From Candidatus Omnitrophota bacterium (GTDB lineage: Bacteria; Omnitrophota; Gorgyraeia; JAZDFF01), in assembly GCA_043808095.1 (NCBI GenBank), contig JAZDFF010000040.1, positions 1,908 through 65,907 of the forward strand: a stretch of DNA of 64,000 nt, given 5' to 3'. This document shows positions 3,155 through 45,514 of this stretch, piece after piece. Below the pieces are notes generated by a model that worked only from the letters and a program-made list of their open reading frames with translations, made no database searches and had not been told where the DNA came from. How positions within the stretch are numbered: position 1 is the first letter of the stretch; the number at the start of each line of letters is the position of its first letter. Made by a program: the position numbers and the translations under genes.

Positions 3155-4159
3155 CTAGTTATAAAAGCTCTGATAAGCCAAAAGTAAACGTTCGTTGTTA
3201 GAACCTATTTCTTTGAAATAACGTTTTATCTCTAATAAATCATAAATATAAACCCTATTTCCATTTTTTATTTTTGGCGTAAAACCTAAGTTTCTGAATA
3301 TCAGTACTACTGATTTGAATAAAGGTTTAGAACAATTCGTAAAACAAATTCTCAAATATCTATATTGCTTTTCGTTAATCTTGTATGTATGAAAATAAGT
3401 ACCGCCATCTGTATCCATAAGGCCTTTTAAACATGCCCGTTGAAATTCCTTATTTTTTTTAATCCAATTCGGAATATCAATCTTATTTCTGATTTTATCT
3501 CCTATTTTAAACCCCTGGCTATTTAAGAATTTCACTAATTCTACGCTTGAAACAATTATATCAGCTCCATTATTTCCTCTATTAATATGGCGTGTTGAAT
3601 CAAGTAAAAATAATTCTTTTATCAGTTTTGCACAATAATCAGAATAATTTTTATCTTTTATATTATTATATGATATTGCAATCTGGTATTTACTCTTAAC
3701 CCCTCCATCTCCCATAAATATGCCGATAAACTCAGCTAATTTAATAGAAGGAGACGGATAAGAAATTATTTTTTTTACCGTAACCCCAAATCTTTTAAAA
3801 TATTCCGGATTTGTTTTTATTAATTCTTGAGTAGTTAAGCCGCCCTTTTTTCTTCCTTCATAAGTACCCGGATTTCCATATAACTTAAGCCTGGCTTTAG
3901 CGCCTAATCTTCCGGCATTAGAAGAATTCCAAGATTCTGGTAGAAAATTAGCAGTTTTGGGTATTAAAATTCCCGTCAGTTTCTCTAACTTTAAGGCAGA
4001 TTCATAACTCATATTAAATTTTTCTCTTTCCCAATCACATAATGTCCTTGGGTGAATATTACAAATCTTGGTTATCCCGACCCGATGTTTAACTAATTTT
4101 GATTTATTCCTTATTATAAATTCTCTCTGTTTGCCCTTTGGAAATGATAATCTAGCCAT
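3155..4159 (-). CDS. Free-standing double-motif LAGLIDADG homing-endonuclease-like protein with an N-terminal HTH-like region.
   Basis: Two LAGLIDADG motifs are present: LAEFIGIFMGDGGV and ACLKGLMDTDGGTY. The stop codon lies 13 nt upstream of the 5' end of tRNA-Ser(GCU) on the same strand. Confidence 0.75.
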   Translation of the reverse strand: MARLSFPKGKQREFIIRNKSKLVKHRVGITKICNIHPRTLCDWEREKFNMSYESALKLEKLTGILIPKTANFLPESWNSSNAGRLGAKARLKLYGNPGTYEGRKKGGLTTQELIKTNPEYFKRFGVTVKKIISYPSPSIKLAEFIGIFMGDGGVKSKYQIAISYNNIKDKNYSDYCAKLIKELFLLDSTRHINRGNNGADIIVSSVELVKFLNSQGFKIGDKIRNKIDIPNWIKKNKEFQRACLKGLMDTDGGTYFHTYKINEKQYRYLRICFTNCSKPLFKSVVLIFRNLGFTPKIKNGNRVYIYDLLEIKRYFKEIGSNNERLLLAYQSFYN

Positions 4160-4206
4160 TTTTACAACGTTTTTTCTTTCCCGCCTTGCGCTTAGTGCCT
4201 ATTGTG

Positions 4207-4218
4207 GCGGGATCCCGC
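4207..4218. promoter_or_regulatory. GCGGGATCCCGC palindrome, one copy of a six-member intergenic palindrome family.
   Basis: The same 12-mer, or its CGGGATCCCG core, recurs at 40723, 49147, 51631, 53061 and 28752, each 20-100 bp 5' of a minus-strand gene start. Confidence 0.4.
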
Positions 4219-4221
4219 CAA

Positions 4222-4680
4222 CTATTTAGTGCGTTTGCGGGAAAAAAAATCTTTCAGTAAAGAGCTGCTCTCTCTTTCTAAAACACCCTTCGTAACTTTT
4301 ATGCGATGATTTAGTTTTTTGTTGTCTACTATATTGATTACTGAGCCGCACGCCCCTGCCTTAGGGTCGGCTGCGCCGTAAATTAGGCGCTTAATCCGCG
4401 CTAAAACAAGTGCGCCTGCACACATACTGCAGGGCTCAATTGTAACATATAATGATGCCTCGGGCAACCACTTACTAGCCAGGTAATTTGTAGCACTGGT
4501 AAGGGTAATCATCTCGGCATGGGCAGTTGAATCTTTGAGTCTTTCTACCTGATTATGGCCCCGGGCAATGATTTTCCGGTCATGGACAATGACGCAGCCA
4601 ACCGGGACCTCGTCTTCTTCGGCTGCAATATACGCCTCCTTAAGCGCCTCTTGCATATAAATCTCATCAATCTTGCCCAT
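4222..4680 (-). CDS. tadA: tRNA-specific adenosine(34) deaminase TadA.
   Basis: It has the CDA-fold zinc motifs HAE and PCxxC (HAEMITL, PCSMCAGAL). It lies directly beside tRNA-Arg(ACG), which is its substrate. Confidence 0.9.
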   Translation of the reverse strand: MGKIDEIYMQEALKEAYIAAEEDEVPVGCVIVHDRKIIARGHNQVERLKDSTAHAEMITLTSATNYLASKWLPEASLYVTIEPCSMCAGALVLARIKRLIYGAADPKAGACGSVINIVDNKKLNHRIKVTKGVLERESSSLLKDFFSRKRTK

Positions 4681-4899: not shown

Positions 4900-5092
4900 T
4901 CAGCTCGGGACGGAGTGCAAATAAAAACCGAGGGACTCCGTAGGCTGATGCTCTATCCTTCGCCGTAGGCGAATCCGCCTGCGGCGGAAATTGCCCGCCA
5001 CTAAAACTTTGCCGCCACAAATCTTAGGCGGCTCGCCAATGAATTGTGGCGAGGCGGGTCCGCCAATCTTTGTGGCGGAAGCTACAGGCGCA
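4900..5092 (-). pseudogene. tRNA-Arg(ACG)-like 5' portion carrying two inserts: a 120-nt insert in the D-loop and a 32-nt insert after the anticodon loop. It has no T-arm.
   Basis: Reverse complement: TGCGCCTGTAGCT [120-nt insert] GGATAGAGC A TCAGC CTACGG [AGTCCCTCGGTTTTTATTTGCACTCCGTCCCG] A GCTGA. The insert pairs with the anticodon (ACGGAGT/ACTCCGT), as pre-tRNA introns do. Confidence 0.55.
4960..5079 (-). repeat. A 120-nt multi-hairpin insertion element, copy 1. It is built from CCGCCA-loop-TGGCGG hairpins.
   Basis: It is near-identical (about 3 mismatches) to 16212..16331, and both copies interrupt the D-loop of a tRNA-Arg-like 5' fragment at exactly the same position. Confidence 0.7.
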
Positions 5093-5397: not shown

Positions 5398-5452
5398 ATA
5401 ATTTTACCTTAAATTTAATTTGAAGCAAATTTTCCCTTTTCGGAAAAATCAG

Positions 5453-5540
5453 CGGAGGGAGTGAGATTCGAACTCACGTGAGCCTTACGACCCAACCGCT
5501 TTTCGAGAGCGGCCCGTTATGACCACTTCGGTATCCCTCC
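5453..5540 (-). tRNA. tRNA-Ser(CGA), type II.
   Basis: Reverse complement: GGAGGGA TA CCG AAGTGGTCATAA CGG G CCGCT CTCGAAA AGCGG + long variable arm + GAGTTCGAATCTC ACTCCCTCC G. Confidence 0.82.
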
Positions 5541-5897
5541 GAATTTGTCGCGGTTTTCCCCTCGTCACTTCGTTCCTCGGGACTCCGCTCACTCCGTTCG
5601 CTTCGCGAGACCGCTAATTTGCCTTTGTTTAACCCATGCAAATTATCCCGAGATTATCGAGGGGCGCATTCGACCGCCCGCCATTAATACTTTGGCGGGC
5701 GTCCGCCTAAGTTTTAGTGGCGGACGCTCTGCCAACTCTCCAAAAATTTATTTCATGAATTTTTGGATCCTGAATCCCGATATAATCGGGATGAAAGATC
5801 TTTCAAAACTCTTGGCTTACCGTTCGGCTACCCTCGCTGCGTAGATCCTTCGCTTTCGCTCAGGATCCGATTTGCTTTCCATTAAGGGAGAAAAAAT

Positions 5898-5984: not shown

Positions 5985-6058
5985 CAAAAATTGCTTTTTA
6001 ATTTTTGGGACTTCGAATCCCGCCATAGGCGGGACGAGAAGTCTTTGCTGAATGTTTT
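5985..6058 (-). promoter_or_regulatory. Conserved tRNA-proximal 5' element: a GTCCCGCC-loop-GGCGGGAC hairpin followed by a CCAAAAATT..AATTTTTGG palindrome.
   Basis: It directly abuts the 5' end of tRNA-Ser(UGA). Near-identical copies lie at 7770..7842 and 8201..8277, and a diverged copy at 5745..5822. It is probably a promoter or leader region. Confidence 0.5.
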
Positions 6059-6081
6059 TTAGATCTCTCTATTCGTTATAA

Positions 6082-7419
6082 CTACATCAGATCTTTCCTC
6101 TTACAGCCTATAGATTTCAAAGCCCCTTCAGGATCATCATTATAGGCGCGGCAAAAAGTTGTTACATCCTTCATCAGGCGGATATTTTTATCTTTTAGAA
6201 TCCTCAATATCTTAGCGCGTATATTGGTTTCCTCTATTACCTCTCTGGGGCTTATCCCCTTAATCTCAGAAAGCCTCTCGCGGAACATCCCGCTTACGCC
6301 GCTATTTACAAATTCTTTTTTTGCAAAATCAAATGACCAGATGCAGGTAAGTAATACCATCTTCTTTTCCATGCCTCCGGTCTCATGAATTTCGGCAACC
6401 ACCCGATGAATTCCGTGCTCATCCTGGAATCTTCTCATTACCACCAACACATCTATCAAACTCACTAATGCCTCAGGCACATTCATGGGTTCATTCTGAA
6501 GCCTGATAATAGTCTCTCTGGCAGTGCTGGCGTGTATTGTGCCGATACAGTATTTACCTATATTCATTGCCGTCATCATATCTTTGGCTTCTCTGCCGCG
6601 TACCTCGCCCACGATTATCCTGTCCGGACGCATCCTCAGGCTATTTTTAACCAAATCCTCAAGGCTCAGATGTTCATCGCTTTCTAAGCGCGAGCAATTC
6701 TCCTCTAAATCCGTATTAAGTTCTAAGGTATCTTCAATTATTACCAACCGTTCGCTGCGCGGGAGAAAACTCAAAATGGCATTTAAAAGAGTAGTCTTAC
6801 CCGAGCCCGGCCCGCCTGAAATAAGGATATTGGCCGGCTTCATAGCTAAACCCTCAACATAAATCCAGAAATGCGCGGCTAAATCATAGCTCAAGGTCCC
6901 GTTTTCGATAAGTTCGATAATACTTAGAGGTATTTCCTTCGCCCGGGTTATGGTGATTTGGGGGCCGTAAGGAGAAAATATGATATTAACCCTTCCTTTG
7001 ACATCCCTTAATTCAATGTTGTTGATTTTACGGATCTCGCTTCTTCCTGAAAATATCACCAATTTCTTGATAAATAGATTTAACTCATCATTATTTGTAA
7101 ACCCGGCCTCGGTCTTTACCAGGCCGTATTTGGTCTTATGGATAAATATGGGGCTTAAGCCATTAATGATAATATCCTCAACCTGAGGGTCATTTAAAAA
7201 TTCTTCGATAGGGCCGTAAGACAAAAATTTCTCAAAAAATGCCTCTATATCCAACCCCTTTATCTTCTTCAAGATGTTTTTGCCTTTGGCGGTATTGTAG
7301 ACTTCCAAAAAATGATTAAAGATTACGCCTTTTTTTTCTTGAGGATCCTGGTTTAAGGTAATTTTTCCGGCAACACGATCCAGAACTTCGTTTTCCATAT
7401 TTAAGAAATCTCTATCCAT
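6082..7419 (-). CDS. CpaF/TadA/VirB11-family type II/IV secretion ATPase.
   Basis: It has Walker A (GGPGSGKTT), an Asp box, and the His box and IIVGEVRG motif typical of CpaF/FlaI-type ATPases. It is an orphan gene between tRNA-Ser genes. Confidence 0.85.
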   Translation of the reverse strand: MDRDFLNMENEVLDRVAGKITLNQDPQEKKGVIFNHFLEVYNTAKGKNILKKIKGLDIEAFFEKFLSYGPIEEFLNDPQVEDIIINGLSPIFIHKTKYGLVKTEAGFTNNDELNLFIKKLVIFSGRSEIRKINNIELRDVKGRVNIIFSPYGPQITITRAKEIPLSIIELIENGTLSYDLAAHFWIYVEGLAMKPANILISGGPGSGKTTLLNAILSFLPRSERLVIIEDTLELNTDLEENCSRLESDEHLSLEDLVKNSLRMRPDRIIVGEVRGREAKDMMTAMNIGKYCIGTIHASTARETIIRLQNEPMNVPEALVSLIDVLVVMRRFQDEHGIHRVVAEIHETGGMEKKMVLLTCIWSFDFAKKEFVNSGVSGMFRERLSEIKGISPREVIEETNIRAKILRILKDKNIRLMKDVTTFCRAYNDDPEGALKSIGCKRKDLM

Positions 7420-7496
7420 ATTATCTCCTCAAATGACCCCGACGAAACGTCGGGGTTATACATTATTATATGTTTTAATCTGGCGCCTAATTATTA

Positions 7497-7685
7497 GTGG
7501 CGGCGCCGCGCTCGCTGCGGCATCCGCCAAAATTTTCCTTGTCGGAAAAAGCATTAAGGGTGCGGCGCCGAAACACATTGTTTCGGCATCCGCCAAAATT
7601 TAAATTGGCGAAAAACATTAAGGTGGCGGGGCCGAAATACATTATTTCGGCATCCGCCAAAATTTAAATTAATTTAAATTTTGGC
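7497..7685. repeat. Three tandem copies of a roughly 64-nt unit, each carrying two hairpins (GCCGAAACA..TGTTTCGGC and GCCAAAATTTAAATTGGC), located immediately 3' of tRNA-Ser(GGA).
   Basis: The periodicity is directly visible. The last unit merges into the tRNA 3' end (..CTCTCCGCCAAAATT). Confidence 0.7.
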
Positions 7686-7769
7686 GGAGAGGGAGGGATT
7701 CGAACCCTCGGACCCTTGCGGATCACATGTTCTCCAGACATGCCGGTTAAACCACTCCCGAACCTCTCC
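7682..7769 (-). tRNA. tRNA-Ser(GGA), type II, with CCA encoded.
   Basis: Reverse complement: GGAGAGG TT CGGGAGTGGTTTAACCG G CATGT CTGGAGA ACATG + variable arm + GAGGGTTCGAATCCCTC CCTCTCC G CCA. Confidence 0.85.
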
Positions 7770-7842
7770 AAAAAATTGCTTTTTATTTTTTGGATTTCGA
7801 GTCCGCCAATGCTTTAATGGCGGACGAGAAATCTTAATTACC
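7770..7842 (-). promoter_or_regulatory. tRNA-proximal 5' element, copy directly upstream of tRNA-Ser(GGA).
   Basis: It is near-identical to 8201..8277 and 5985..6058. Confidence 0.5.
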
Positions 7843-8100
7843 TTTGATCAACGCTAATTTCTTCTTACGGCTAAATCTCTTTACCTCTAATTCTCTTTTC
7901 CTGGCTAAATTATAATTTTCACACAATTCTTTATGTAGCAAAATCAAGGGCTTGCGAAAACGCGTGTAACGACATTTATTCGAAGTATTATGTTCATGAA
8001 TACGTTGTTCTACATTTATGGAAATACCTACATATAAGGTGTTATCTCGACATTCTGCTATATAAACGTACCAGGGTTTAGAATAATTAACCTTAGCCAC
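7834..8100 (-). CDS. Small GIY-YIG nuclease-domain protein of the YhbQ/UPF0213 type.
   Basis: It has the motif block WYVYIAECRDNTLYVGISINVEQRIHEHN. It sits between two copies of an approximately 85-bp direct repeat. Confidence 0.75.
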   Translation of the reverse strand: MAKVNYSKPWYVYIAECRDNTLYVGISINVEQRIHEHNTSNKCRYTRFRKPLILLHKELCENYNLARKRELEVKRFSRKKKLALIKGN

Positions 8101-8182
8101 GAATTTATATTAGAAACTATCTAATTTAGATCTCTCACCATGACTGTGTCAGGGTTCGAGAACATTTTCGTTTATGCGAAAA

Positions 8183-8277
8183 TGTCCACTCCCGAACCTC
8201 TCCAAAAAATTGCTTTTTATTTTTTGGATTTCGAGTCCGCCAATGCTTTAATGGCGGACGAGAAATCTATTTTCCCT
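8183..8277 (-). repeat. Second copy of the tRNA-Ser(GGA) 5' end (GGAGAGGTTCGGGAGTGG) plus the tRNA-proximal element. Together with 7752..7842 it forms an approximately 85-bp direct repeat flanking the GIY-YIG gene.
   Basis: The sequence identity to 7752..7842 is directly visible. The tRNA fragment is followed by an unrelated hairpin (ACATTTTCG..CGAAAATGT) rather than a D-arm. Confidence 0.7.
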
Positions 8278-8280
8278 ATC

Positions 8281-8949
8281 TCAAAAAAGCTGTTTAAATA
8301 CGGCGTATAGGATATTGTCAGCCACACGGATAAAATCAACGAAGAAATTGGTTAAAGAAAATCCATCAAAGATGAGTTTTATCAGAATGGCAAGTAATAC
8401 CAGGTTAAGGATATAAATTACAGAAAAACCGAAGACATAACTTACCCTTAGGAATTCTCCTTGTTTAGAACGTAGCGATTTCGCGCTAAAGACAAGATGA
8501 AGGCATATAGTAAAACCAAAAAGAAAGAAAAAATATTTAACCAGGTCTAAGGATTTAAATGTTAATGATAGTATTAAATACGCAAGAAACAGGACAATAG
8601 TATAAATGGGTAATAGATACGGCGCTACCTTTATCAATGGTTTAAAGAAACCAAACGTCAGCTCTAATAATTTCTGGCCCCTGGCATAAACAATTTGTGG
8701 CTCCCAGATGAATGCATAAATTATCAAAAAACTGACGAGCCCCGCCCAGAAATAATTCTGAAAAGGAGCTTCAATAACACTAAATTCACGCAAAAACGCT
8801 ACAGTTACGGAATAGACAAACGGCAAGAGGCACATCCCCAATAAAAACTTAACTACCGCAAAAATTTTGCCTGTCAAGCCGGATCTTTTGACTGATGCGC
8901 TATCTTCTTTTTTAGGAGATATTTTCTTTTCCATCTTAAATGAGCGCAT
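8281..8949 (-). CDS. Hypothetical polytopic membrane protein.
   Basis: Multiple hydrophobic helices are present. The first five codons (MRSFK) come from the family-A 5'-UTR repeat, so the true start is probably the downstream MEKK. Confidence 0.5.
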   Translation of the reverse strand: MRSFKMEKKISPKKEDSASVKRSGLTGKIFAVVKFLLGMCLLPFVYSVTVAFLREFSVIEAPFQNYFWAGLVSFLIIYAFIWEPQIVYARGQKLLELTFGFFKPLIKVAPYLLPIYTIVLFLAYLILSLTFKSLDLVKYFFFLFGFTICLHLVFSAKSLRSKQGEFLRVSYVFGFSVIYILNLVLLAILIKLIFDGFSLTNFFVDFIRVADNILYAVFKQLF

Positions 8950-9020
8950 AACTTACGGAGCGGAAATCCGCGAAGTAAGTTATTTGCGCGAATTTAATCC
9001 CTCACCTTTTTACCCTACAC
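8936..9020 (-). repeat. Family-A structured 5'-UTR repeat (AACTTACGGAGC..GCGAAGTAAGTT hairpin, then GCGCGAATTAATCCC).
   Basis: Other copies lie at 21786..21858, 38022..38110, 55944..56062 and 60150..60258. Each is within about 100 nt upstream of a gene start. Confidence 0.6.
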
Positions 9021-9070
9021 CTAAACTATCCTGGATAAAGGTGGGGGATAATAATAGGTTTTCTTTTTGA

Positions 9071-10396
9071 TTAAGATATCCTTTCCTTACCATCTAAATA
9101 TGGCCGCAATACTTCAGGGATAATCACCGCGCCGTCTTTCTGCTGGTAATTTTCTAAGATTGCTATCACGGTCCTTGCCAGGGCAATCCCTGAACCGTTT
9201 AAGGTATGCACAAAATCTATTTTTTTAGAATCCTTTCTTCTAAATCTTATATTCGCCCGACGGGCCTGGAAACTCTCTAAATTCGAGCAACTCGACACCT
9301 CAAGCCACTTGTCAATGCCCGCGGCATAGGCCTCAAGGTCATAGCACTTTCCGGCAGCAAAACTCAGGTCCTGTGTTGAAAGGGCAACTACCCTGTAAGC
9401 AAGGCCCAAGAGCTGTAAAACCTCCTCGGCATCTTTGACTAATTTTTCAAGCTCATCATAGGAAGTCTCGGGTTTTACGAATTTAACCAGCTCCACTTTA
9501 TCGAATTGATGCACGCGCATAAGGCCCTTGGTATCTTTCCCGTAAGAACCGGCCTCCCGCCTAAAACAGGCGGTATAGGCAGTGAGGTATTTGGGCAGGT
9601 CTTCTTCATTTAAGACCTCATCCCTGAATATGTTGGTAACCGGTACCTCAGCCGTAGGGATAAGAAATAAATCATCATCTTTTAACCGATACATATCTTC
9701 TTCTAATTTGGGAAGTTGTCCTGTCCCGGTCATTGATGCACGGTTAACCAAAAAAGGCGGAAAGACCTCAAGATATCCGTGTTTTCTGGTGTGTAAATCC
9801 AGCATAAAGTTAATAAGTGCGCGCTCTAATTTTGCGCCCCAGCCTTTAAAAAGGATAAAATTTGAGCCGGTAATCTTGGCGGCGCGGTTAAAATCAATGA
9901 TATCTAAGTGCTGGCTGATCTCTATATGAGTGACCGGCTTAAAATCAAATACAGGTTGCTTACCCCAGGAACGGATAACCTGATTTTTAGAAAGCCCCCC
10001 TACCGGCACAGATGTATGAGGCACATTAGGAATAATTAACAATAACTTATTAAATTCCTGGTCGGATTCTTTTAATTTGTCTTCCAGGGCGTCGATTTTT
10101 TCGGCGATGGTCTTCATTGAGGCGATTTTTGTTTTGGCATCCGCCTTCGCTGAAGCTTCGGCGGATAGTTCTTCGAAGCCTTGGCGAAGGAGAACATCCT
10201 TCTTCTCTTTCAATAACGCGGTGATCTCATCATTAGCCTTGTTCTTTTGGGCGCGCAGGGCCTCGACCTCATTTAAGGTTTTACGCCGGGAATCATCGAG
10301 CTTAATCAAACCTTCTAAATCAATTTTTAACCCGCGGTTTTTAATCGACTGCTTTACTAAATCCAAATTTTCCCGAATAAATTTTATGTCTAACAT
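9071..10396 (-). CDS. serS: Seryl-tRNA synthetase.
   Basis: It has the N-terminal coiled-coil arm and class II aaRS core motifs. It lies among four tRNA-Ser genes. Confidence 0.93.
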
Positions 10397-10485
10397 TTTA
10401 TCCTTTGATTACCCCCAATGGTCGCATCCTCCTTCGCTCTTTGATAAATTTTGTTGTCATTTTGACGAGCTTCGGAGGATTTCGT

Positions 10486-11949
10486 CTAGCCCTTTATTAC
10501 ACCTAAAGGCCTCATCCTGCAGACGCGTTTTGAAATGCCGGCATTATGCACTACATCTACCACATCATTTACATCTTTATAGGCCTGGGGCGCTTCTTCA
10601 ACAATAGTCCCCCGCCCGGTTGCCTTAACTGTAATGCCTTTTGATTCTAATTCCTTTAATAACGCACTCAAATCAATGGTTTTAAGCGCACCACTTCGGG
10701 ATTTAAGCCGGCCTGCGCCATGGCAGGTCGACCCGAAGGTCTCTTCCATTGCCTTTTGCGTACCCACTAAAAGATAGGAATTCCTGCCCATATCTCCGGG
10801 GATAATCACCGGCTGGCCGGTCTTTTTGTATCGGGCAGGTAATGCTGGATTTCCCGGGCCAAAGGCGCGCGTAGCGCCTTTTCTATGGATACATAGATTT
10901 TTCTCTTTACCGTCAACCGTATGCCTCTCCATCTTTGCGATATTATGGGCCACGTCATAAATTAAAAACATGCCCATATCCTGCCAGGAACGGTTAAAAA
11001 ACTTCTCAAATACCTCGCGGGTCAAATGCATCAGGCATTGCCGATTTGCCCAGGCGTAATTTGCCGCGCATCTCATGGCCCCAAAATAAGCCTTACCTTC
11101 GGACGAATTAACCGGAGCACAGGCAAGCTGCTTGTCCGGGACATTGATATTATATTTCGCCAGGCAATGAATCATGGTCTTGAGAGAGTCATCGCAGACC
11201 TGATAACCTAAGCCCCGTGAACCGGAATGTATCATAATCGTAATCTGGCCTTCGGTTAAGCCAAATTCATCGCAAAGATCGCGCTCATACAGCCGGTCAA
11301 TTACCTGGACCTCTATGAAATGATTTCCCGAGCCGAGTGTCCCGGATTGGGCCTTGCCTCTAACATAAGCCCTATCTGAAACTGCCGAAGGATCTGCTCC
11401 GGCAATTGCACCAAATTCTTCGGTACACTCTAAATCATCGCTAGTTCCGTAGCCTTTTTCAACCGCCCACTTTGCACCTTTTACTAAAATTTCTTTTTCT
11501 TCTCTGGTAGTGACCTTTATATCGCCTTTTGAACCTATACCTGTAGGTATGTCATTAAATAGGGCATAGACCAAATTCTTGATTTTATCTTTTATCTCAT
11601 CAAATTGAAAATTAGTTTTAAGGAGTCTTATCCCGCAATTTATGTCATAGCCCACGCCTCCGGGCGAAATTACTCCGCCTTCCTCAGGGTCAGTTGCCGC
11701 TACCCCTCCGATACAAAATCCATATCCCCAATGGATATCCGGCATAGCCAGGGAATAATTTACAATCCCCGGTAAAAATGCGACATTTGCCACCTGTTCC
11801 AGGGCTCTATCCTGGCGGATATCCTTTAGCAGTTTCTCATCGGCATAGATAATTCCCGGAACCCGCATTCCGGGTTTATAACTCTTGGGTATACGCCAAC
11901 GATAATCGTCAATCTTCTCTAATGGTACTTGCCCGATCTCAGACATCAA
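10486..11949 (-). CDS. rtcB: RNA-splicing ligase RtcB (3'-phosphate/5'-OH ligase).
   Basis: Conserved RtcB blocks are present: NCGIRLL, HSGSRGLG and CHGAGR. Confidence 0.92.
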   Translation of the reverse strand: MMSEIGQVPLEKIDDYRWRIPKSYKPGMRVPGIIYADEKLLKDIRQDRALEQVANVAFLPGIVNYSLAMPDIHWGYGFCIGGVAATDPEEGGVISPGGVGYDINCGIRLLKTNFQFDEIKDKIKNLVYALFNDIPTGIGSKGDIKVTTREEKEILVKGAKWAVEKGYGTSDDLECTEEFGAIAGADPSAVSDRAYVRGKAQSGTLGSGNHFIEVQVIDRLYERDLCDEFGLTEGQITIMIHSGSRGLGYQVCDDSLKTMIHCLAKYNINVPDKQLACAPVNSSEGKAYFGAMRCAANYAWANRQCLMHLTREVFEKFFNRSWQDMGMFLIYDVAHNIAKMERHTVDGKEKNLCIHRKGATRAFGPGNPALPARYKKTGQPVIIPGDMGRNSYLLVGTQKAMEETFGSTCHGAGRLKSRSGALKTIDLSALLKELESKGITVKATGRGTIVEEAPQAYKDVNDVVDVVHNAGISKRVCRMRPLGVIKG

Positions 11950-12364
11950 AAATCACCTCAGCCTGCCAACCTGATTTAAGTTCCCTTAATTGCAACTGGT
12001 GATAAGTAGCGGCCTTAATCTCAGTGTTTACTCTGTAATTATTCATATCTTCGCCAACGGCAGTTGCCTGCAGATTGTTTTTATCTAATTTTTCAATCTT
12101 AAAATCCGAGAAAATTAATTCTTTGGCGGCGGATAAAGAAAGTAATTCATTTAGCCAGTTTATGAAAAGCTCCTCTAAATTATCCGCCTTTTGTTTAACC
12201 GTGATATTTCTGGTATCTGGCATCTGGCATCTCGTATCTGGCTTTTTTTCAGCCATAATCTCAAACATTGCCGTGGCGGAATTTTTAAATAATTCTTTTA
12301 AATCTTTGGCCTTTACCCTGATACAGATATCGGCGGTGTGTTCGATTTGTTCGTAGTTTTTCAT
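11939..12364 (-). CDS. Archease, the RtcB activator.
   Basis: It has the N-terminal EHTADI motif. It overlaps the rtcB start as in archaeal and eukaryotic archease-RtcB pairs. It contains a short internal PDTR tandem duplication. Confidence 0.85.
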   Translation of the reverse strand: MKNYEQIEHTADICIRVKAKDLKELFKNSATAMFEIMAEKKPDTRCQMPDTRNITVKQKADNLEELFINWLNELLSLSAAKELIFSDFKIEKLDKNNLQATAVGEDMNNYRVNTEIKAATYHQLQLRELKSGWQAEVIFDV

Positions 12365-16011: not shown

Positions 16012-16034
16012 TGCGCCTGGCTGGACTCGAACCA
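16012..16034 (-). pseudogene. tRNA-Arg(ACG)-like T-loop and acceptor 3' fragment (GGTTCGAGTCCAGCCAGGCGCA) abutting tRNA-Arg(UCG).
   Basis: It matches positions 52-73 of tRNA-Arg(ACG) at 4801..4874, with T-loop variation. Confidence 0.5.
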
Positions 16035-16115: not shown

Positions 16116-16344
16116 TACTAATTATATCGCGATATCCAGTTCCGTCCCTCGACTTCGCTCGGGATGGAATCCTGAGTTAAACGAAGGATTCCTAAGACTG
16201 GCGCTCTATCCTTCGCCGTAGGCGAATCCGCTTGCGGCGGAAATTGCCCCCACTAAAACTTTGCCGCCACAAATCTTAGGCGGCTCGCCAATGAATTGTG
16301 GCGAGGCGGGTCCGCCAATCTTTGTGGCGGAAGCTATAGGCGCA
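16116..16344 (-). pseudogene. Second tRNA-Arg-like 5' portion carrying the same 120-nt D-loop insert (16212..16331) and a roughly 50-nt insert in the anticodon-stem region.
   Basis: Reverse complement: TGCGCCTATAGCT [120-nt insert] GGATAGAGC G CCAGT CTTAGGA[..GGAATCC..GGATTCC..] ACTGG. The architecture is the same as at 4900..5092. Confidence 0.5.
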
Positions 16345-36643: not shown

Positions 36644-38029
36644 TTACCTTTTTGATTTTAATCTTTTGCTGGTTAGCCGGGAAATCTTTTTCTTTAAGAC
36701 CCTTGCCGGAACGCCTACTACAACCGAATAATCTTTAACATTACAACCGGCAGTCACTACGCTTCCTGCTCCGGTTACTGCTTTTTTCCCGACTTTTACC
36801 GGTGCAACTAAAACCGTATCCGAGCCGATAAAAGCGCCTTTTCCGATTTTAGTTACATTTTTCTTACGGCCGTCGTAATTTGCGGTAACAGTGCCTGCCC
36901 CGATGTTAACACTATCTCCTACCTTGGCGTCGCCAAGATAGCTGAAATGCCTTACCTTAGTAAACCTGCCGACTCGCGTGCGGTTCAGTTCCGTAAAATT
37001 TCCGATTGAGGCATCATCTTCTAAGACCGTGCCCGGCCGGAGATGGCTAAAAGGCCCGACGGAACAACGGCGACCGATAACTACATCGTGCTCTATAAAG
37101 GTATAGGGATAAATTACAGAATTCCCGCCAATCTTCACATTCGGATAAATATATGTATTATTGGGGTCTAAGATGTTTACGCCTTTTTCTATAAACCCAA
37201 CCAAAATTCTGCGGCGGATTATATCAGAGGCCTTGTTTAAATCTTCTCTCGTATTAACACCTTGGGCCTGGGTATCGTCTTCTATCCTTAACGCCTGGAT
37301 GTGATAACCCTGACTGTCAAGGCACTCGATTATATCCGTAAGATAATATTCCTTTTTCTGCTCGTTAAGTTTAATATGGCCCAGATTGGAAAATAAGACG
37401 TCCTTCTTAAAGCAGTATACGCCTGTGTTTATCTCGTTTATGCGTTTTTGTTCCGGCGAAGCGTCTTTCTCTTCGACGATCTTTTTGACATCATTATTTT
37501 TGTCTCTGATAATCCTACCGTAACCGGCAGGGTCACCAACCAAGGCAGTCAATAACGTGCAAGCGGCTCTGGTATTAGAGTGGACTTCAATAAGCGAAAA
37601 TAAAGTTTCTTTCCTTATCAGAGGATGGTCTCCGTAGAAGATTAGCACATCCGAAGCATCCTTCTTAAAAAGTCCGGCCGTCGCTTTTATAGCATCAGCT
37701 GTACCTAAAAGCCTCCTCTGAAGGCAAAGCCTTATATCTTTTTTCTTTTGATAATTTTTAATAAATACTTTAACTAAATCTTTTTTATAACCGATAACAA
37801 GAATAATCCTTTTTAATTTGCGGGTGGCGCTTAACAGGTCCAGGATATAGCCTAACATAGGCTTGCCAAAAATAGGCTGAAGGACCTTCGGGATTCCGGA
37901 TTTAAGTCTTGTGCTTTTGCCTGCTGCTAAAACAATTGCATCTAGATCTTGCATTTTAAAAACCTGATACCTAAGAGTTGATTTGTATATTTTAAAAAGT
38001 TGCCCGGTCTGGACTCTTAATGAGACCAC
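36644..38029 (-). CDS. glmU: Bifunctional GlcNAc-1-P uridyltransferase / GlcN-1-P acetyltransferase GlmU.
   Basis: It has an N-terminal nucleotidyltransferase domain (LAAGKSTRLKSGIPKVL) and a C-terminal hexapeptide acetyltransferase domain. The true start is probably the internal MQDLDAIV (about 37954), because the annotated N-terminus overlaps the family-A UTR repeat. Confidence 0.88.
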   Translation of the reverse strand: MVSLRVQTGQLFKIYKSTLRYQVFKMQDLDAIVLAAGKSTRLKSGIPKVLQPIFGKPMLGYILDLLSATRKLKRIILVIGYKKDLVKVFIKNYQKKKDIRLCLQRRLLGTADAIKATAGLFKKDASDVLIFYGDHPLIRKETLFSLIEVHSNTRAACTLLTALVGDPAGYGRIIRDKNNDVKKIVEEKDASPEQKRINEINTGVYCFKKDVLFSNLGHIKLNEQKKEYYLTDIIECLDSQGYHIQALRIEDDTQAQGVNTREDLNKASDIIRRRILVGFIEKGVNILDPNNTYIYPNVKIGGNSVIYPYTFIEHDVVIGRRCSVGPFSHLRPGTVLEDDASIGNFTELNRTRVGRFTKVRHFSYLGDAKVGDSVNIGAGTVTANYDGRKKNVTKIGKGAFIGSDTVLVAPVKVGKKAVTGAGSVVTAGCNVKDYSVVVGVPARVLKKKISRLTSKRLKSKR

Positions 38030-38141
38030 AACTTACGGAGCGTTAACGAACGTAAGTTGTCTGGTCGAATTAATCCCGAGTCCGCCATTGATTCAGTGGC
38101 GGACGAGGGAGAACCAGAACATTTATTTATGGTAAATTTAG

Positions 38142-38213
38142 TTGCCCGGTCTGGACTCGAACCAGAAAAGCGAGACCCAAATTCTCGTGTGTTACCAATT
38201 ACACTACCGGGCA
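38142..38213 (-). tRNA. tRNA-Gln(UUG).
   Basis: Reverse complement: TGCCCGG TA GTGT AATTGGTA ACAC A CGAGA ATTTGGG TCTCG CTTT TCTGG TTCGAGT CCAGA CCGGGCA A. The U1:A72 pair is typical of bacterial tRNA-Gln. Confidence 0.82.
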
Positions 38214-44230: not shown

Positions 44231-45514
44231 TTATCCATTGGCAAATTTCACCAGAAGCGGCATAAGGTCTTTGCCGAGGATTCCTTTTATAGAGCCTTCA
44301 GCACAAGTTTTTTCCGAAAAACTCTCCTGGCCATCAGGCTTAATGTTTTTACCGTAGATTAAAAGCGGCACAGGGTCGCTTGAGTGGGCTTTGAGGCTAC
44401 AAGGAGTGGAGTGGTCTGCGGTTACTGCAATGATTGAGTCCTCCTGATTCATCTTAGAAAGGAGGTTTTTAAAAAAATACTTGTCAATTAATTCGATAAT
44501 TTCTTTCTTTTTGCTAAAATCTCCGTCGTGGCCCGGTTCATCTGGGCCTTTGATGTGGATGTAAAGGCCGTCAAATTTTTCTATCTCATCAAGCGCCACT
44601 TTCGTCCAGACACTATAGTCAACATCAAGATGCCCTGTTGATGAAGGGACTTCGACTAGCGACATGCCGGTTAAAAGGGCAATGCCTTTTTCAACCGGCA
44701 TCTGGACAAATGAACCGAATCTCACTTTCAACAAATCCTCTAGCCTGGGAAATTTTGGCAGGTGATCCCCTGCATCGCGCGATAAAATAATATTTGCCGG
44801 CATTTTATTCCCGGAAATCCGCTTCTGGTTTATGAGAGACTCTAAAAGAACCTTGTGCGATTTCTGGGTAAACTCATTTAAAAGAAGGGCCGCCTCTTTT
44901 GCCGGAAGGCTATCTTCGTGGCCGGCCACGGGGCTGGATATAGAAACTAGGTTTTCAAATTTCTCTTTGGCCACGCCAAATACGCCTTCACGGTCATAGG
45001 CCGGGTCAGTATTGGTAATCCAGCCGGAAAGTTTTGAGTGCATGCCCCTTATAACCAATACCCCGCGGTGGCCGATGGTATTTTTGAATTCAAAGGTGGC
45101 ATTTGAAAGCGTGACCTTGGCATTTATCTCTTTAGAAAGGGCGGTCGCCTCTTCCGTAGTTAAATTTCTGCCTACCCGGCGGTCTTTGATGGTTTTCCCG
45201 TCGGAGTCAACCGTGGCAAAATTTACCCTGAGGGCAAGATTACCGTCTTCTACGGCCAGACCCTCGGCAAAGGACTCCAGCGGGCCTCTTCCGGTGTAAT
45301 ACTTACGCGCATCATAACCCAAGAGACTGATAACCGCAATATCCGACTCCGGGGCAATGCCTTTGGCTACCGGATAAAGCAGGCCGAGTTTGCTTTTCTT
45401 GGCTAAACCATCCAGAGTTGGCGTTGATGCGGCCTCAAGAGGAGTTTTATTATCCAAGGCTTTTATGGGAAGGTCACCTAAGCCGTCTAAAACTATGTAG
45501 AAGATTTTTTTCAT
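44231..45514 (-). CDS. apgM: Cofactor-independent phosphoglycerate mutase, archaeal type.
   Basis: It has the ApgM N-terminal block IVLDGLGD and the metal-binding C-terminal block (TADHSTP). Confidence 0.85.
   Translation of the reverse strand: MKKIFYIVLDGLGDLPIKALDNKTPLEAASTPTLDGLAKKSKLGLLYPVAKGIAPESDIAVISLLGYDARKYYTGRGPLESFAEGLAVEDGNLALRVNFATVDSDGKTIKDRRVGRNLTTEEATALSKEINAKVTLSNATFEFKNTIGHRGVLVIRGMHSKLSGWITNTDPAYDREGVFGVAKEKFENLVSISSPVAGHEDSLPAKEAALLLNEFTQKSHKVLLESLINQKRISGNKMPANIILSRDAGDHLPKFPRLEDLLKVRFGSFVQMPVEKGIALLTGMSLVEVPSSTGHLDVDYSVWTKVALDEIEKFDGLYIHIKGPDEPGHDGDFSKKKEIIELIDKYFFKNLLSKMNQEDSIIAVTADHSTPCSLKAHSSDPVPLLIYGKNIKPDGQESFSEKTCAEGSIKGILGKDLMPLLVKFANG

Follow-up and report, generated by a model that had tools for sequence, protein, structure and literature searches.

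An 88-aa GIY-YIG nuclease gene and the hairpin modules on either side of it, found just upstream of a tRNA-Ser(GGA) gene in an Omnitrophota contig, probably constitute a mobile cassette of the homing or transposon type that targets tRNA-Ser genes and whose target is rebuilt by duplication. The cassette is about 350 bp long and comprises a left module (P1 hairpin plus GA-hairpin), the nuclease gene and a right module (TC-hairpin plus A/T-rich hairpin); the right module is an inverted copy of the left and abuts position +1 of the tRNA. There are two copies of the tRNA 5' end at the locus, the upstream one being a dead fragment and the downstream one part of an intact gene.

The repeat, the end modules and the nuclease

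The window, i.e. the whole stretch of 64,000 nt that was analysed, contains an exact 83-nt direct repeat (7752-7834 = 8186-8268) with a spacing of 434 nt, as determined by repeat search and blastn. The sequence-only reading had placed this repeat at 7752..7842 and 8183..8277, and the repeat itself stands, but those extents are a few bases too long in comparison with the exact 83 nt. Each copy, read on the minus strand, consists of 65 nt of upstream sequence followed by nt 1-18 of tRNA-Ser(GGA) (GGAGAGGTTCGGGAGTGG). The tRNA-Ser(GGA) gene lies on the minus strand at 7682-7769 (ARAGORN; Rfam tRNA, 51 bits) and the distal copy of its 5' end (8203-8186, minus strand) gives way to unrelated sequence after nt 18, just as had been described. 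Between the repeat copies is the GIY-YIG ORF (8100-7834, minus strand, GTG start, 88 aa), whose stop codon shares its last base with the start of the proximal repeat, and the earlier claim that the repeat brackets this ORF is borne out both by the PF01541 match (E = 2.3e-16) and by its position between the exact copies. A chance origin is ruled out by the recurrence of an exact 83-mer within 434 nt, and independent MAGs produced by different assemblers share this architecture (L005, L010, L017), which makes an assembly artefact unlikely. The 83-nt repeat is made up of a cassette end plus an 18-nt target duplication, and one insertion into a naive leader would be too simple a history for it. 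The features of the locus and of the related remnants in the window are as follows.

8226..8268, minus strand: distal TC-hairpin (AGATTTC-TC-GTCCGCCA..TGGCGGAC-TC-GAAATCC), which opens the distal 83-nt repeat
8202..8227, minus strand: distal A/T-rich hairpin (CCAAAAAAT..ATTTTTTGG), abutting tRNA +1
8186..8203, minus strand: truncated tRNA-Ser(GGA) 5' fragment, nt 1-18, ending after the D-loop GG
8162..8185, minus strand: P1 hairpin (ACATTTTCG CATAAA CGAAAATGT), the cassette left end, abutting the tRNA fragment; 8/8 tested pairs compensatory
8128..8161, minus strand: GA-hairpin with a TCTC/GAGA stem, a tandem G.A internal loop, a variable upper stem and a conserved GAGAGATCT end
7834..8100, minus strand: GIY-YIG ORF, 88 aa, GTG start, a stand-alone UPF0213-type domain (Pfam, AF2, fold matches)
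7792..7834, minus strand: proximal TC-hairpin, starting at the last base of the stop codon; right-end module part 1
7768..7793, minus strand: proximal A/T-rich hairpin, abutting tRNA +1; right-end module part 2
7682..7769, minus strand: intact tRNA-Ser(GGA), nt 1-18 of which (7769-7752) lie within the proximal repeat (ARAGORN, Rfam)
5985..6069, minus strand: ORF-less cassette derivative at tRNA-Ser(TGA) (R1 match 6006-6050, E 0.003)
5558..5868, minus strand: cassette relics between tRNA-Ser(TGA) and tRNA-Ser(CGA) (R1 match 5718-5807)

The distal TC-hairpin starts 12 nt past the stop codon of the upstream membrane-protein gene, and the same TC-hairpin architecture, with compensatory stem changes, is found at four other loci (L005, L010, L017, L039). 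The distal tRNA fragment is 100% identical to the gene copy, including a lineage-specific D-arm (TTCGGGAGTGG), and the identical 18 nt are present in a cassette-free tRNA (L080). The proximal TC-hairpin is the inverted counterpart of the GA-hairpin, as indicated by a match to the covariance model R1 on the opposite strand (7787-7840). In the ORF-less derivative the order is GAGAGATCT (6069-6061), 17 nt, TC-hairpin (6043-6008), A/T hairpin (6007-5985) and tRNA. The relics at 5558..5868 comprise a GA-hairpin (5868-5843), a TC-hairpin (5801-5765), an A/T hairpin (5764-5742), the 17-nt 5' end of a pseudo-tRNA-Ser (5741-5725) and a further GA-hairpin (5582-5558); the D-loop of the pseudo-tRNA is broken by a 49-nt insert of two hairpins (5724-5676), after which it resumes as GGTCGAATGCG (5675-5665), and the fragment matches the tRNA-Ser(CGA) of two relatives (L083/L085).

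A protein-profile search recovered 78 loci, 42 of which are of Omnitrophota type. In P1 plus the GA-hairpin 93% of cells were paired and 15/16 pairs were compensatory, a level reached by 0/500 shuffles, and the module region folds much better than shuffled sequence (z = -6.8). R1 matches the window at 8122-8192 with 77 bits, and the full module is confined within the window to the tRNA-Ser cluster. With R1, a sense module was detected ahead of the ORF in 31 loci and an inverted one shortly after it in 32, an arrangement that constitutes terminal inverted repeats; the inner ends of the two are GAGAGATCT and AGATYTCTC, the copies are imperfect, structure and inner ends being kept better than sequence, and the tandem G.A loops change strand between left and right copies. 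The 65-nt element had been read from the sequence as a tRNA leader, but it is instead the right-end hairpin module of the cassette, the motif being present upstream of 32/39 GIY-linked tRNA-Ser genes, 1/26 GIY-free tRNA-Ser genes and 0/36 other tRNAs. The D-arm GNGAGYGG/TYNAA and the inner module ends GGTGAGAGA/TCTAA are candidates for a single recognition motif.

A number of other readings of this region were considered. No known RNA family was detected in Rfam for the 5' module or leader, either at the gathering threshold or at E <= 10, and hammerhead, k-turn and T-box readings of the module were dropped by eye on the grounds of misfitting motif order or bulges. Pairing of the 5' module with the cognate tRNA was also rejected: in the window TCGAACCCT could pair with the T-arm, yet this was put down to chance or composition, and complementarity of 8-9 nt to the tRNA occurs in only four loci and shows no covariation. 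TCTCGAA in the module as a relic of the tRNA-Ser(CGA) anticodon loop was set aside as it does not change with the isoacceptor. A loose genome-wide scan for tandem-G.A hairpins gave counts equal to those of shuffles (26 vs about 13 x 2), and of such hairpins only the long-stem cases near tRNAs are meaningful. Scanning of 7400-8400 for sigma-70 promoters and terminators yielded promoter-like sites no more numerous than in shuffles, and a 15-nt match to tRNA nt 19-33 at 44661-44675, within a coding region, was judged to be due to chance.

The encoded protein scores 60.3 bits against PF01541 (cut-off 22.6) and is a single-domain member of the UPF0213/YhbQ type with a predicted Slx1-like fold. The family has 17 invariant residues and about 65% identity; YVY (11-13), YVG (23-25), R33, H37/N38 and E70 are invariant in 30 homologues and all family-invariant residues are kept in the window protein. 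A profile search of the PDB matched residues 7-86 to the UPF0213 structures 1ZG2 (E = 4.3e-18) and 1YWL (E = 4.9e-14). The AlphaFold2 (AF2) model (pLDDT 90.4; E10-16, E22-27, H30-39, E53-60, H63-74, H78-87) and Foldseek matches to GIY-YIG structures point to the beta-beta-alpha-alpha-beta-alpha GIY-YIG core fold, and the best fold matches after UPF0213 were Slx1 nuclease domains (6SEH, 4XLG, 7CQ4; TMq 0.60-0.65). The whole protein is one GIY-YIG domain with no separate DNA-binding domain; that it is a bare 88-aa protein, without the DNA-binding domain of characterised sequence-specific GIY-YIG homing enzymes, was counted against a mobile reading. It scores 16.4 bits against TIGR01453, below the cut-off of 56, and no match to a SegB-type NCBIfam or PHROG was found; searches of PHROG and PADLOC gave no match and hence no sign of a phage-specific family or defence system, and exact-sequence look-ups of the GIY protein and the flanking membrane protein returned nothing. 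Free-standing homologues are carried by phage genomes, but the homologue of Rhizobium phage RHph_Y65 is not beside a tRNA, from which it follows that the tRNA link is not universal for the protein family.

Recurrence, empty sites and decay

A tRNA-Ser gene lies downstream on the same strand in 39/42 Omnitrophota loci (within 350 nt in 36 of them), and the remaining three stop at a contig edge. The sequence-only reading had allowed that occurrence of the gene at unrelated loci lacking repeats would make the link coincidental; what was found is the gene at tRNA-Ser in these 39 loci, with a repeat of the same kind in at least 14. All four anticodons are represented among the linked genes (GGA 13, CGA 14, TGA 8, GCT 4), the isoacceptors are intermingled in the protein tree, which is short (88 aa) and poorly resolved, and in one MAG three cassette copies sit at three different tRNA-Ser genes (L007, L027, L034). 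The gene is often located within a conserved RtcB-SerRS-membrane protein-tRNA-Ser neighbourhood and in several loci its stop codon is 3-13 nt from the tRNA or overlaps it. Outside the Omnitrophota, a homologous cassette occurs in WOR-3/Stahlbacteria directly downstream of a tRNA carrying a group I intron, and in Patescibacteria-type genomes a homologue is found between tRNA-Arg and tRNA-Lys.

Presence or absence of the gene at orthologous loci had been proposed as a check, and orthologous or near-identical tRNA loci without it do exist. Both the GIY gene and any R1 match are absent at four orthologous loci of the nearest relatives (L081, L083, L085, L087), which share the layout archease-RtcB-SerRS-membrane protein-tRNA-Ser array, and the gene is also absent from two contigs (L079/L080) with a 98.9%-identical tRNA-Ser(GGA). 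These empty sites are in relatives at about 60% flanking-protein identity or in rearranged contexts, and the loci compared yielded no filled and empty alleles of one site above 95% identity. Such sporadic presence and absence at homologous sites is characteristic of free-standing homing genes, as is the position of the ORF between a membrane-protein gene and a tRNA with neither ribozyme nor intein. There are also traces of a life cycle: truncated ORFs occur at four loci (L033, L034, L052, L072), tandem or nested units at three (L007, L030, L036), and ORF-less relics at two other tRNA-Ser genes in the window.

In at least 14 loci in addition to the window, a second copy of tRNA nt 1 to 18-20, with 0-1 mismatch, lies 45-85 nt ahead of the ORF and ends after the D-loop GG, and decayed copies are present in further loci. 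The fragment carries the local, lineage-specific tRNA sequence. The flanks of the repeated segment are unrelated in many loci (L014, L018, L025, L026, L033, L045), and in five of these there are sharp identical cores of 18-22 nt (L014, L018, L026, L033, L045). These data bear on the proposal, made from the sequence, that a nuclease cassette had inserted into the tRNA leader with target duplication, or that a homing-type event had taken place. The core of that proposal holds, but the insertion point does not: the fixed junction falls within the body of the tRNA, behind the GG of the D-loop at nt 18-20. The position of the junction varies among loci (nt 10, 15-20, 31-32), and the lengths of the direct repeats over the loci range from 10 to 136 nt, for which an element-borne or repair-generated origin is also possible. 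Long, 100%-identical repeats of 57-136 nt are found in the window and at L010, L017 and L040; perfect repeats of this length are unlike one simple insertion, and a recognisable tRNA fragment is absent in about half of the loci, both of which were counted against a mobile cassette.

Possible mechanism and competing explanations

How such a cassette might move can be outlined from the anatomy of the loci. From the fixed D-loop junction we infer that the putative nuclease cleaves tRNA-Ser DNA, and it would cut cassette-free genes in the D-loop region; it is probably structure-specific, acting on DNA prone to form hairpins or cloverleaves. The cassette could then enter by homing, with a filled allele as the template for repair, or it could be joined to the ends of a staggered break, where fill-in would duplicate tRNA nt 1-18 and so rebuild a complete tRNA and leave the host unharmed. 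The longer repeat in the window (83 nt) is due to an extra copy of the right module upstream of the tRNA fragment, which most likely arose by re-insertion or by out-of-register repair in an occupied site, comparable to the segmental amplification driven by phage SegB. Transcription probably starts upstream and covers both the ORF and the tRNA, as part of a SerRS-membrane protein operon, and RNase P would free the tRNA. As the intact downstream tRNA keeps the presumed target, the immunity of filled loci is not accounted for by this scheme.

The closest known analogue of the cassette is SegB of phages T4 and T6, a free-standing GIY-YIG homing endonuclease located in a tRNA cluster, which cuts inside tRNA genes (PMC2330249, PMC13096335). 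SegB homologues are enriched next to tRNAs and the breaks they make lead to segmental duplications of a nuclease-plus-tRNA unit (PMC2330249, PMC13096335). In both systems the GIY-YIG gene lies between tRNA genes rather than in an intron. However, the phage protein is more than twice as long and has a DNA-binding part, and it recognises about 27 bp, including a T-loop motif, with no isotype preference, whereas the cassette encodes a bare 88-aa UPF0213 domain in bacterial chromosomes, strictly upstream of tRNA-Ser, and has a D-loop junction, hairpin end modules and a rebuilt tRNA 5' end. The combination of a catalytic domain with a DNA-binding domain reading a long asymmetric site, which is typical of homing enzymes, is lacking. 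The UPF0213/YhbQ proteins of known structure (1ZG2, BH0048; 1YWL, EF2693) are of the same family, size and fold but have no assigned function or described genomic behaviour, and the literature search found no paper tying the UPF0213 family to tRNA genes. The eukaryotic endonuclease Slx1, the best structural match after UPF0213, has branched or hairpin-like DNA as its substrate instead of a long sequence, an activity that would suit the hairpin modules and loop-position junctions, but it has an extra RING/zinc domain, needs Slx4, is a repair enzyme rather than a mobile-element protein and shows only about 15% identity. Intron-encoded GIY-YIG enzymes of the I-TevI type and the "collaborative homing" nucleases beside group I introns share the nuclease superfamily and the selfish logic, but there an intron surrounds the ORF, while the cassette keeps its tRNA functional by duplication, not splicing; a search of 7400-8400 with Rfam at E <= 10 found no intron or ribozyme around the ORF, and the downstream tRNA is uninterrupted.

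Comparison may also be made with tRNA-targeting elements and with DNA transposons bearing terminal inverted repeats (TIRs) and target-site duplications (TSDs), with which the cassette shares inverted ends, target direct repeats, non-autonomous derivatives, the use of tRNA genes as a safe harbour and variable duplications. Penelope-like retroelements have a GIY-YIG endonuclease and long, variable TSDs. The cassette differs from transposons in having no integrase, DDE, HUH or RT protein and in being restricted to tRNA genes; its sole ORF is the GIY-YIG gene, and none of the known transposase classes (DDE, HUH/Y1, serine, tyrosine, Cas1) is represented. No prokaryotic transposon with a GIY-YIG protein as its only driver came up in literature searches, nor did any description of this arrangement (searched as GIY-YIG with tRNA-Ser, YhbQ, COG2827, UPF0213 and TIR/TSD in prokaryotes).

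An important consideration is whether the gene is instead a vertically inherited host gene working with tRNA-Ser, for example as a nuclease for maintenance or processing that is transcribed together with the tRNA, or as a regulator of the SerRS/tRNA-Ser/RtcB neighbourhood; the fragments and hairpins would then be left over from recombination in a region rich in repeats and heavily transcribed. The strictly upstream, same-strand position and the strong conservation of the protein, with its 17 invariant residues, also fit a gene beneficial to the host, while stop codons within 3-13 nt of the tRNA or overlapping it imply co-transcription, and the frequent RtcB-SerRS-membrane protein-tRNA-Ser neighbourhood points the same way. 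Set against this are the absence of the gene from all four nearest orthologous loci and from beside a near-identical tRNA, its linkage to four isoacceptors that are mixed in the protein tree, genomes with as many as three copies, the occurrence of truncated copies, ORF-less relics and tandem units, inverted end modules and target-type direct repeats that amount to the anatomy of a mobile element, and free-standing homologues in phage genomes; we consider a host gene improbable. The tandem units (L036, L007), the sharp 18-22-nt cores with unrelated flanks (L014, L018, L026, L033, L045) and the fact that the 434-nt unit between the direct repeats could be excised by recombination would all suit an integrative element with a circular intermediate, in which the 18-nt tRNA 5' segment is the att core (attL/attR), the recombinase is encoded elsewhere and the GIY-YIG protein is cargo or accessory. 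There is, however, no integrase or recombinase in or beside the cassette at any locus, and the repeat is the tRNA 5' end, whereas classical tRNA-integrating elements such as genomic islands and prophages duplicate the 3' part; the junction varies, unlike a fixed crossover site, and in sequence the fragment follows the tRNA variant of its own locus, not a consensus carried by the element; all of this makes such an element quite improbable.

The remaining two explanations fare worse. A covariation-supported structure situated between a flank-derived 18-mer and a nuclease ORF recalls the layout of the IscB omega-RNA, and the region folds well beyond shuffles, so the tRNA fragment plus P1/GA-hairpin might be imagined as a guide-plus-scaffold RNA steering the nuclease to tRNA-Ser, as in the OMEGA systems (IscB/TnpB) where the RNA spans the element end. 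This is very improbable, given that a single 88-aa GIY-YIG domain is too small for RNA binding and R-loop formation, that about half of the loci whose ORF is intact lack the fragment or have only a decayed version of it, that no Rfam family matches, and that the inverted module copy and strand-switching G.A loops indicate two-fold symmetric DNA recognition rather than an RNA scaffold. It is scarcely credible that the repeat is a local accident of replication slippage or assembly beside an unrelated GIY-YIG gene: MAG assemblies can mis-join short repeats, and a repeat search found many others around the tRNA genes of the window, but at least 14 species-level genomes, independent of one another and obtained in different studies with different assemblers, show the same gene/fragment/tRNA arrangement in different sequences.

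Going beyond a mobile cassette that targets tRNA-Ser, a bolder proposal is that the loci represent an unrecognised class of minimal prokaryotic mobile element. Its sole protein would be an 88-aa Slx1-like, structure-specific GIY-YIG nuclease that recognises its own hairpin ends and cloverleaf-prone tRNA-gene DNA and inserts the element into a staggered break in the tRNA-Ser D-loop, with a target duplication of about 20 to >100 bp rebuilding the tRNA. This we put forward tentatively, as possible but rather unlikely in its entirety.

Implications for the UPF0213 family and for tRNA genes

Stand-alone GIY-YIG proteins of the UPF0213/YhbQ type are frequent in bacteria and structures of them have been available since 2005, but they have no known role. 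The phylum-wide, position-specific link with tRNA-Ser suggests a testable function, that of a mobility nuclease targeting tRNA genes, and if this is true the family would gain its first function, one exercised across several phyla, as is hinted at by the positions upstream of tRNA-Ser in Omnitrophota, downstream of the intron-bearing tRNA in WOR-3 and between tRNA-Arg and tRNA-Lys in Patescibacteria-type genomes. It would extend the SegB phenomenon of phages, in which a nuclease, tRNA genes and nuclease-driven duplication are associated, to bacterial chromosomes and to a much smaller enzyme, and it points to a very small nuclease whose specificity is possibly directed by structure. It would also mean that a selfish element can settle in an essential gene by restoring that gene's 5' end, with no need of an intron, and would account for the tRNA pseudo-fragments and rearranged tRNA-Ser arrays in Omnitrophota MAGs.

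The tRNA-Ser(GGA) locus and its hairpin modules

The cassette consists of a left module of two hairpins, a GIY-YIG ORF and an inverted right module, and its anatomy in the window is as follows (L numbers denote loci from other genomes or contigs with which the window was compared).

7682-7769, minus strand: tRNA-Ser(GGA), Rfam tRNA 51 bits
7752-7834 and 8186-8268: copies of an exact 83-nt direct repeat, 434 nt apart; in minus-strand reading each comprises a 43-nt hairpin AGATTTC-TC-GTCCGCCA...TGGCGGAC-TC-GAAATCC, an A/T-rich hairpin and tRNA nt 1-18, GGAGAGGTTCGGGAGTGG
8100-7834, minus strand: GIY-YIG ORF, 88 aa, GTG start, between the repeat copies; PF01541 E = 2.3e-16

The sequence-only reading had described this repeat, ORF and tRNA to within a few bases, and its statement that the distal repeat copy carries 18 nt of the tRNA followed by unrelated sequence was borne out by the divergence seen beyond that copy. 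The final base of the ORF stop codon is base 1 of the proximal repeat.

In the left module a hairpin termed P1 lies directly 3' of the tRNA fragment. Next comes the GA-hairpin, which has a basal stem of 4 bp (TCTC/GAGA, TTTC/GAAA, CCTC/GAGG, TATC/GATA and other variants), tandem G.A in its internal loop and an upper stem that varies between loci; the 3' end of this second hairpin, GAGAGATCT, falls a few bases ahead of the start codon. In a 20-sequence alignment 93% of cells were paired, with compensatory changes at 15 of 16 pairs; this level of pairing was matched by 0/500 shuffles and slid controls dropped to 31-60%. No matching Rfam family was found for the module. In 31 loci a covariance model placed it ahead of the ORF in sense orientation (77 bits at 8122-8192 in the window), and in 32 loci the model picked up weaker opposite-strand copies just past the ORF, these having the form AGATYTCTC-stem-loop-stem-TCGARATCC plus an A/T hairpin abutting tRNA +1. 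When the 3' motif of the downstream copy was sought within 70 nt upstream of tRNA genes, it was present at 32 of the 39 tRNA-Ser genes with a GIY gene upstream, as against 1/26 tRNA-Ser genes without one, the sole positive being an ORF-less derivative in the window, and 0/36 other tRNAs. The element that had been read from the sequence as a tRNA leader is thus indeed present upstream of the tRNA, but it is the downstream inverted module of the cassette and not the tRNA's own. Upstream of the ORF the G.A loops are carried by the sense strand, and downstream by the antisense strand, a symmetry that would be expected of DNA-end recognition and not of one RNA.

At 14 or more loci in addition to the window, nucleotides 1 to ~18-20 of the tRNA recur, with 0-1 mismatch, at a distance of 45-85 nt on the upstream side of the ORF. 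The 3' edge of this fragment falls nearly always directly past the conserved D-loop GG, the exceptions being nt 10 (L015, L034), nt 15-16 (L039, L044) and nt 31-32 (L017, L040). Identity is limited to about -3 to +20, with unrelated flanks, in L014, L018, L025, L026, L033 and L045, and reaches 25-105 nt further upstream in the window, L005, L010, L017, L039 and L040; in the remaining loci the fragment is decayed (3-5 mismatches) or absent. The fragment agrees in every case with the local tRNA variant, and that of the window bears an unusual D-arm, TTCGGGAGTGG, also found in the cassette-free tRNA of L080, which argues that it is a copy of the target and not a generic sequence borne by the element. 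The D-arm at the junction (CGGGAGTGG/TTTAA) and the inner end of the left module (GGTGAGAGA/TCTAA) are alike at 9/14 positions (window 8128-8136, 7826-7834 and 7752-7769), a likeness that may represent a candidate recognition motif, and GAGAG occurs at the tRNA 5' end and both inner module ends in the window.

Just downstream of tRNA-Ser(GGA) are three tandem ~64-nt units (window 7518-7679), each a two-tier hairpin TGGCGGA-(GCCGAAAT..ATTTCGGC)-CCGCCA, and the first TGGCGGA and the tRNA 3' end together make up a perfect inverted repeat of 18 nt (7653-7670 / 7671-7688). The GIY-free relatives L083 and L085 have single units of this design after tRNA-Ser genes, so this is a native trailer, triplicated in the window.

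Recurrence, empty sites and relics

A scan of one genome per species yielded 78 loci encoding relatives of the protein. A tRNA-Ser lies downstream on the same strand in 39 of the 42 Omnitrophota-type loci, the other three stopping at a contig edge, and the gap is 350 nt or less in 36/39, usually 10-130 nt with occasional overlap. All four isoacceptors are targets (GGA 13, CGA 14, TGA 8, GCT 4), a single MAG has three copies of the cassette gene, each at a different tRNA-Ser, and isoacceptors are intermingled in a neighbour-joining protein tree, which is short and weakly resolved.

Occurrence is patchy. The comparison of orthologous loci proposed in the sequence-only reading was made through homologues of the flanking membrane protein, and the four such loci that are nearest (~60% identity) all have the order archease-RtcB-SerRS-membrane protein-(5-12 nt)-tRNA-Ser(TGA)-tRNA-Ser(CGA)-(tRNA-Ser(GGA)), with a GIY gene or module match in 0/4. 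Two metagenome contigs whose tRNA-Ser(GGA) is 98.9% identical likewise lack the gene, and in L080 the tRNA comes directly after a deaminase-like gene. Derivatives in the window are:

6069-5985: ORF-less cassette at tRNA-Ser(TGA), consisting of GAGAGATCT, 17 nt, right module and tRNA
between the tRNA-Ser TGA and CGA genes: hairpin relics
5741-5665, between the TGA and CGA genes: pseudo-tRNA-Ser, D-loop split by a 49-nt two-hairpin insert

Elsewhere there are tandem or nested units (L007, L030, L036), truncated ORFs (L033, L034, L052, L072) and a deletion fusing tRNA GGAGAG to module GAGAGATCT (L012). Such a pattern of gain, decay and loss is typically seen with selfish nuclease genes.

Omnitrophota have a conserved neighbourhood in the archease-RtcB-SerRS-membrane protein-tRNA-Ser array (window 6082-12364; L002, L005, L022, L030-L032, L044, L081-L088), with inteins in RtcB of L083 and L087. 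That of the window is rearranged: it starts with GGA, and TGA is preceded by an inserted gene for a type II/IV secretion ATPase (6082-7419). Its functional tRNA-Ser(CGA) (5452-5540) differs in sequence from that of relatives, whose type remains only as the truncated, D-loop-interrupted relic (5665-5741), which suggests gene replacement in the array.

Related tRNA-associated elements

In six WOR-3/Stahlbacteria genomes (L035, L037, L038, L041, L043, L046; ~3300-4300 each) the 3' exon of a tRNA with a group I intron is immediately followed by a homologous GIY-YIG cassette that shares the P1 and GA-hairpin 5' module, often tandemly repeated; this layout is reminiscent of 'collaborative homing'. 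More distant relatives in other phyla lie between tRNA-Arg(TCG) and tRNA-Lys(CTT), or tRNA-Val and tRNA-Ala, near partial tRNA copies interrupted in the T-loop. In the Arg/Lys setting such a copy, split by a hairpin insert, follows tRNA-Lys (L051 4355-4450; L061 4366-4460; L053 1000-1152), and 1-4 copies of a different short repeat, GGAAACTTTCTGCGTAAACGC, precede the ORF. In phages the homologues are ordinary free-standing genes and have no tRNA next to them.

Several other tRNA genes of the window are interrupted or partly duplicated. On the minus strand at 109-544 a group I intron (157-468, Rfam RF00028, 61.8 bits) splits the anticodon loop of a tRNA gene that ARAGORN does not report (5' exon 544-513, 3' exon 147-109); in the 5' region of the intron are two tandem-G.A hairpins (512-461) in the style of the cassette module. 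At 37999-38213 (minus) the gene for tRNA-Gln(TTG) has behind it an incomplete duplicate of its 3' part, in the order T-stem (38119-38111), an insert of ~95 nt with hairpins (38074-38110 among them) that splits the T-loop, and the last 18 nt of the tRNA once more (38016-37999). The combination of loop insertion and partial duplication, here with no ORF, parallels the tRNA-Ser case. Partial copies also lie ahead of tRNA-Arg genes (4936-4958 and 16116-16200, minus). For tRNA-Arg(ACG) the copy covers nt 18-40, from the D-loop to the anticodon loop, stands 62 nt upstream of the gene and comes after the hairpin TTCGCCTACGGCGAA; the same hairpin with a D-loop-onward fragment is found upstream of tRNA-Arg(TCG), which is followed by a tRNA-Arg 3' fragment (16012-16034).

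The nuclease, its possible mechanism and known systems

The encoded protein has a 100%-identical counterpart, annotated 'GIY-YIG nuclease family protein', in a Candidatus Omnitrophota MAG. A homology search gave 179 candidate relatives at E <= 1e-5, and the 120 of these that were listed have identities of 55-76% and are nearly all 80-130 aa. Across 30 aligned relatives 17 residues are invariant, including the GIY/YIG tyrosines, R33, H37/N38 and E70. Among solved structures the family profile matched only 1ZG2 (E = 4e-18) and 1YWL (E = 5e-14), both UPF0213, a family of stand-alone single-domain GIY-YIG proteins. The AlphaFold2 model is confident (pLDDT 90.4), its best fold matches beyond UPF0213 being nuclease domains of the structure-specific endonuclease Slx1 (TMq 0.60-0.65). 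No second domain was found in the 88 aa, PHROG and PADLOC searches gave zero matches, and a group I intron endonuclease model gave only a sub-threshold match.

The GIY-YIG gene, the two inverted modules and the target-type repeat probably constitute a mobile cassette that targets tRNA-Ser; the core of the sequence-only reading, insertion of a nuclease cassette with duplication of the target, was right, though the anatomy is richer than it described. Directly observed are the anatomy, its recurrence, the diversity of targets, the patchy occurrence and the relics. The nuclease would break cassette-free tRNA-Ser DNA in the D-loop region. It may recognise structure instead of a long sequence: its fold is Slx1-like, it has no binding domain, and the junctions fall in cloverleaf loops. 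Entry of the cassette would take place through repair templated by a filled copy, or else through joining of the cassette into a break with staggered ends, and the tRNA would be restored through duplication of nt 1-18. The ORF and tRNA may be co-transcribed from upstream; in relatives the first tRNA-Ser is 5-12 nt past the membrane-protein gene. Since the 83-nt repeat of the window is made up of the right module and the 18-nt duplication, and on the left is bounded by the start of the 43-nt hairpin (TC-hairpin), as in L005, L010 and L017, a second event in an occupied site would be needed, either re-insertion or out-of-register repair.

The cassette does not fit a classical transposon, having no known transposase class, or an integrative element, there being no integrase and the 5' rather than the 3' part of the tRNA being duplicated; nor is it encoded within an intron. 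The closest known system is phage SegB, a GIY-YIG enzyme of the T4 tRNA cluster that reads a tRNA T-loop motif and homes together with flanking tRNA genes (PMC2330249). A 2026 study reported that SegB cuts within tRNA genes and brings about segmental amplification of segB-plus-tRNA units, and that in phages it is enriched beside tRNAs (PMC13096335). In contrast, the cassette is hosted by a bacterial chromosome, encodes an 88-aa protein of UPF0213 type, is specific for tRNA-Ser with a D-loop junction, has hairpin end modules and would rebuild the 5' end of the tRNA. No account of such a cassette turned up in literature searches. The cassette would add a variation to the theme of free-standing GIY-YIG mobility nucleases and gives the orphan family UPF0213 a candidate function that can be tested.
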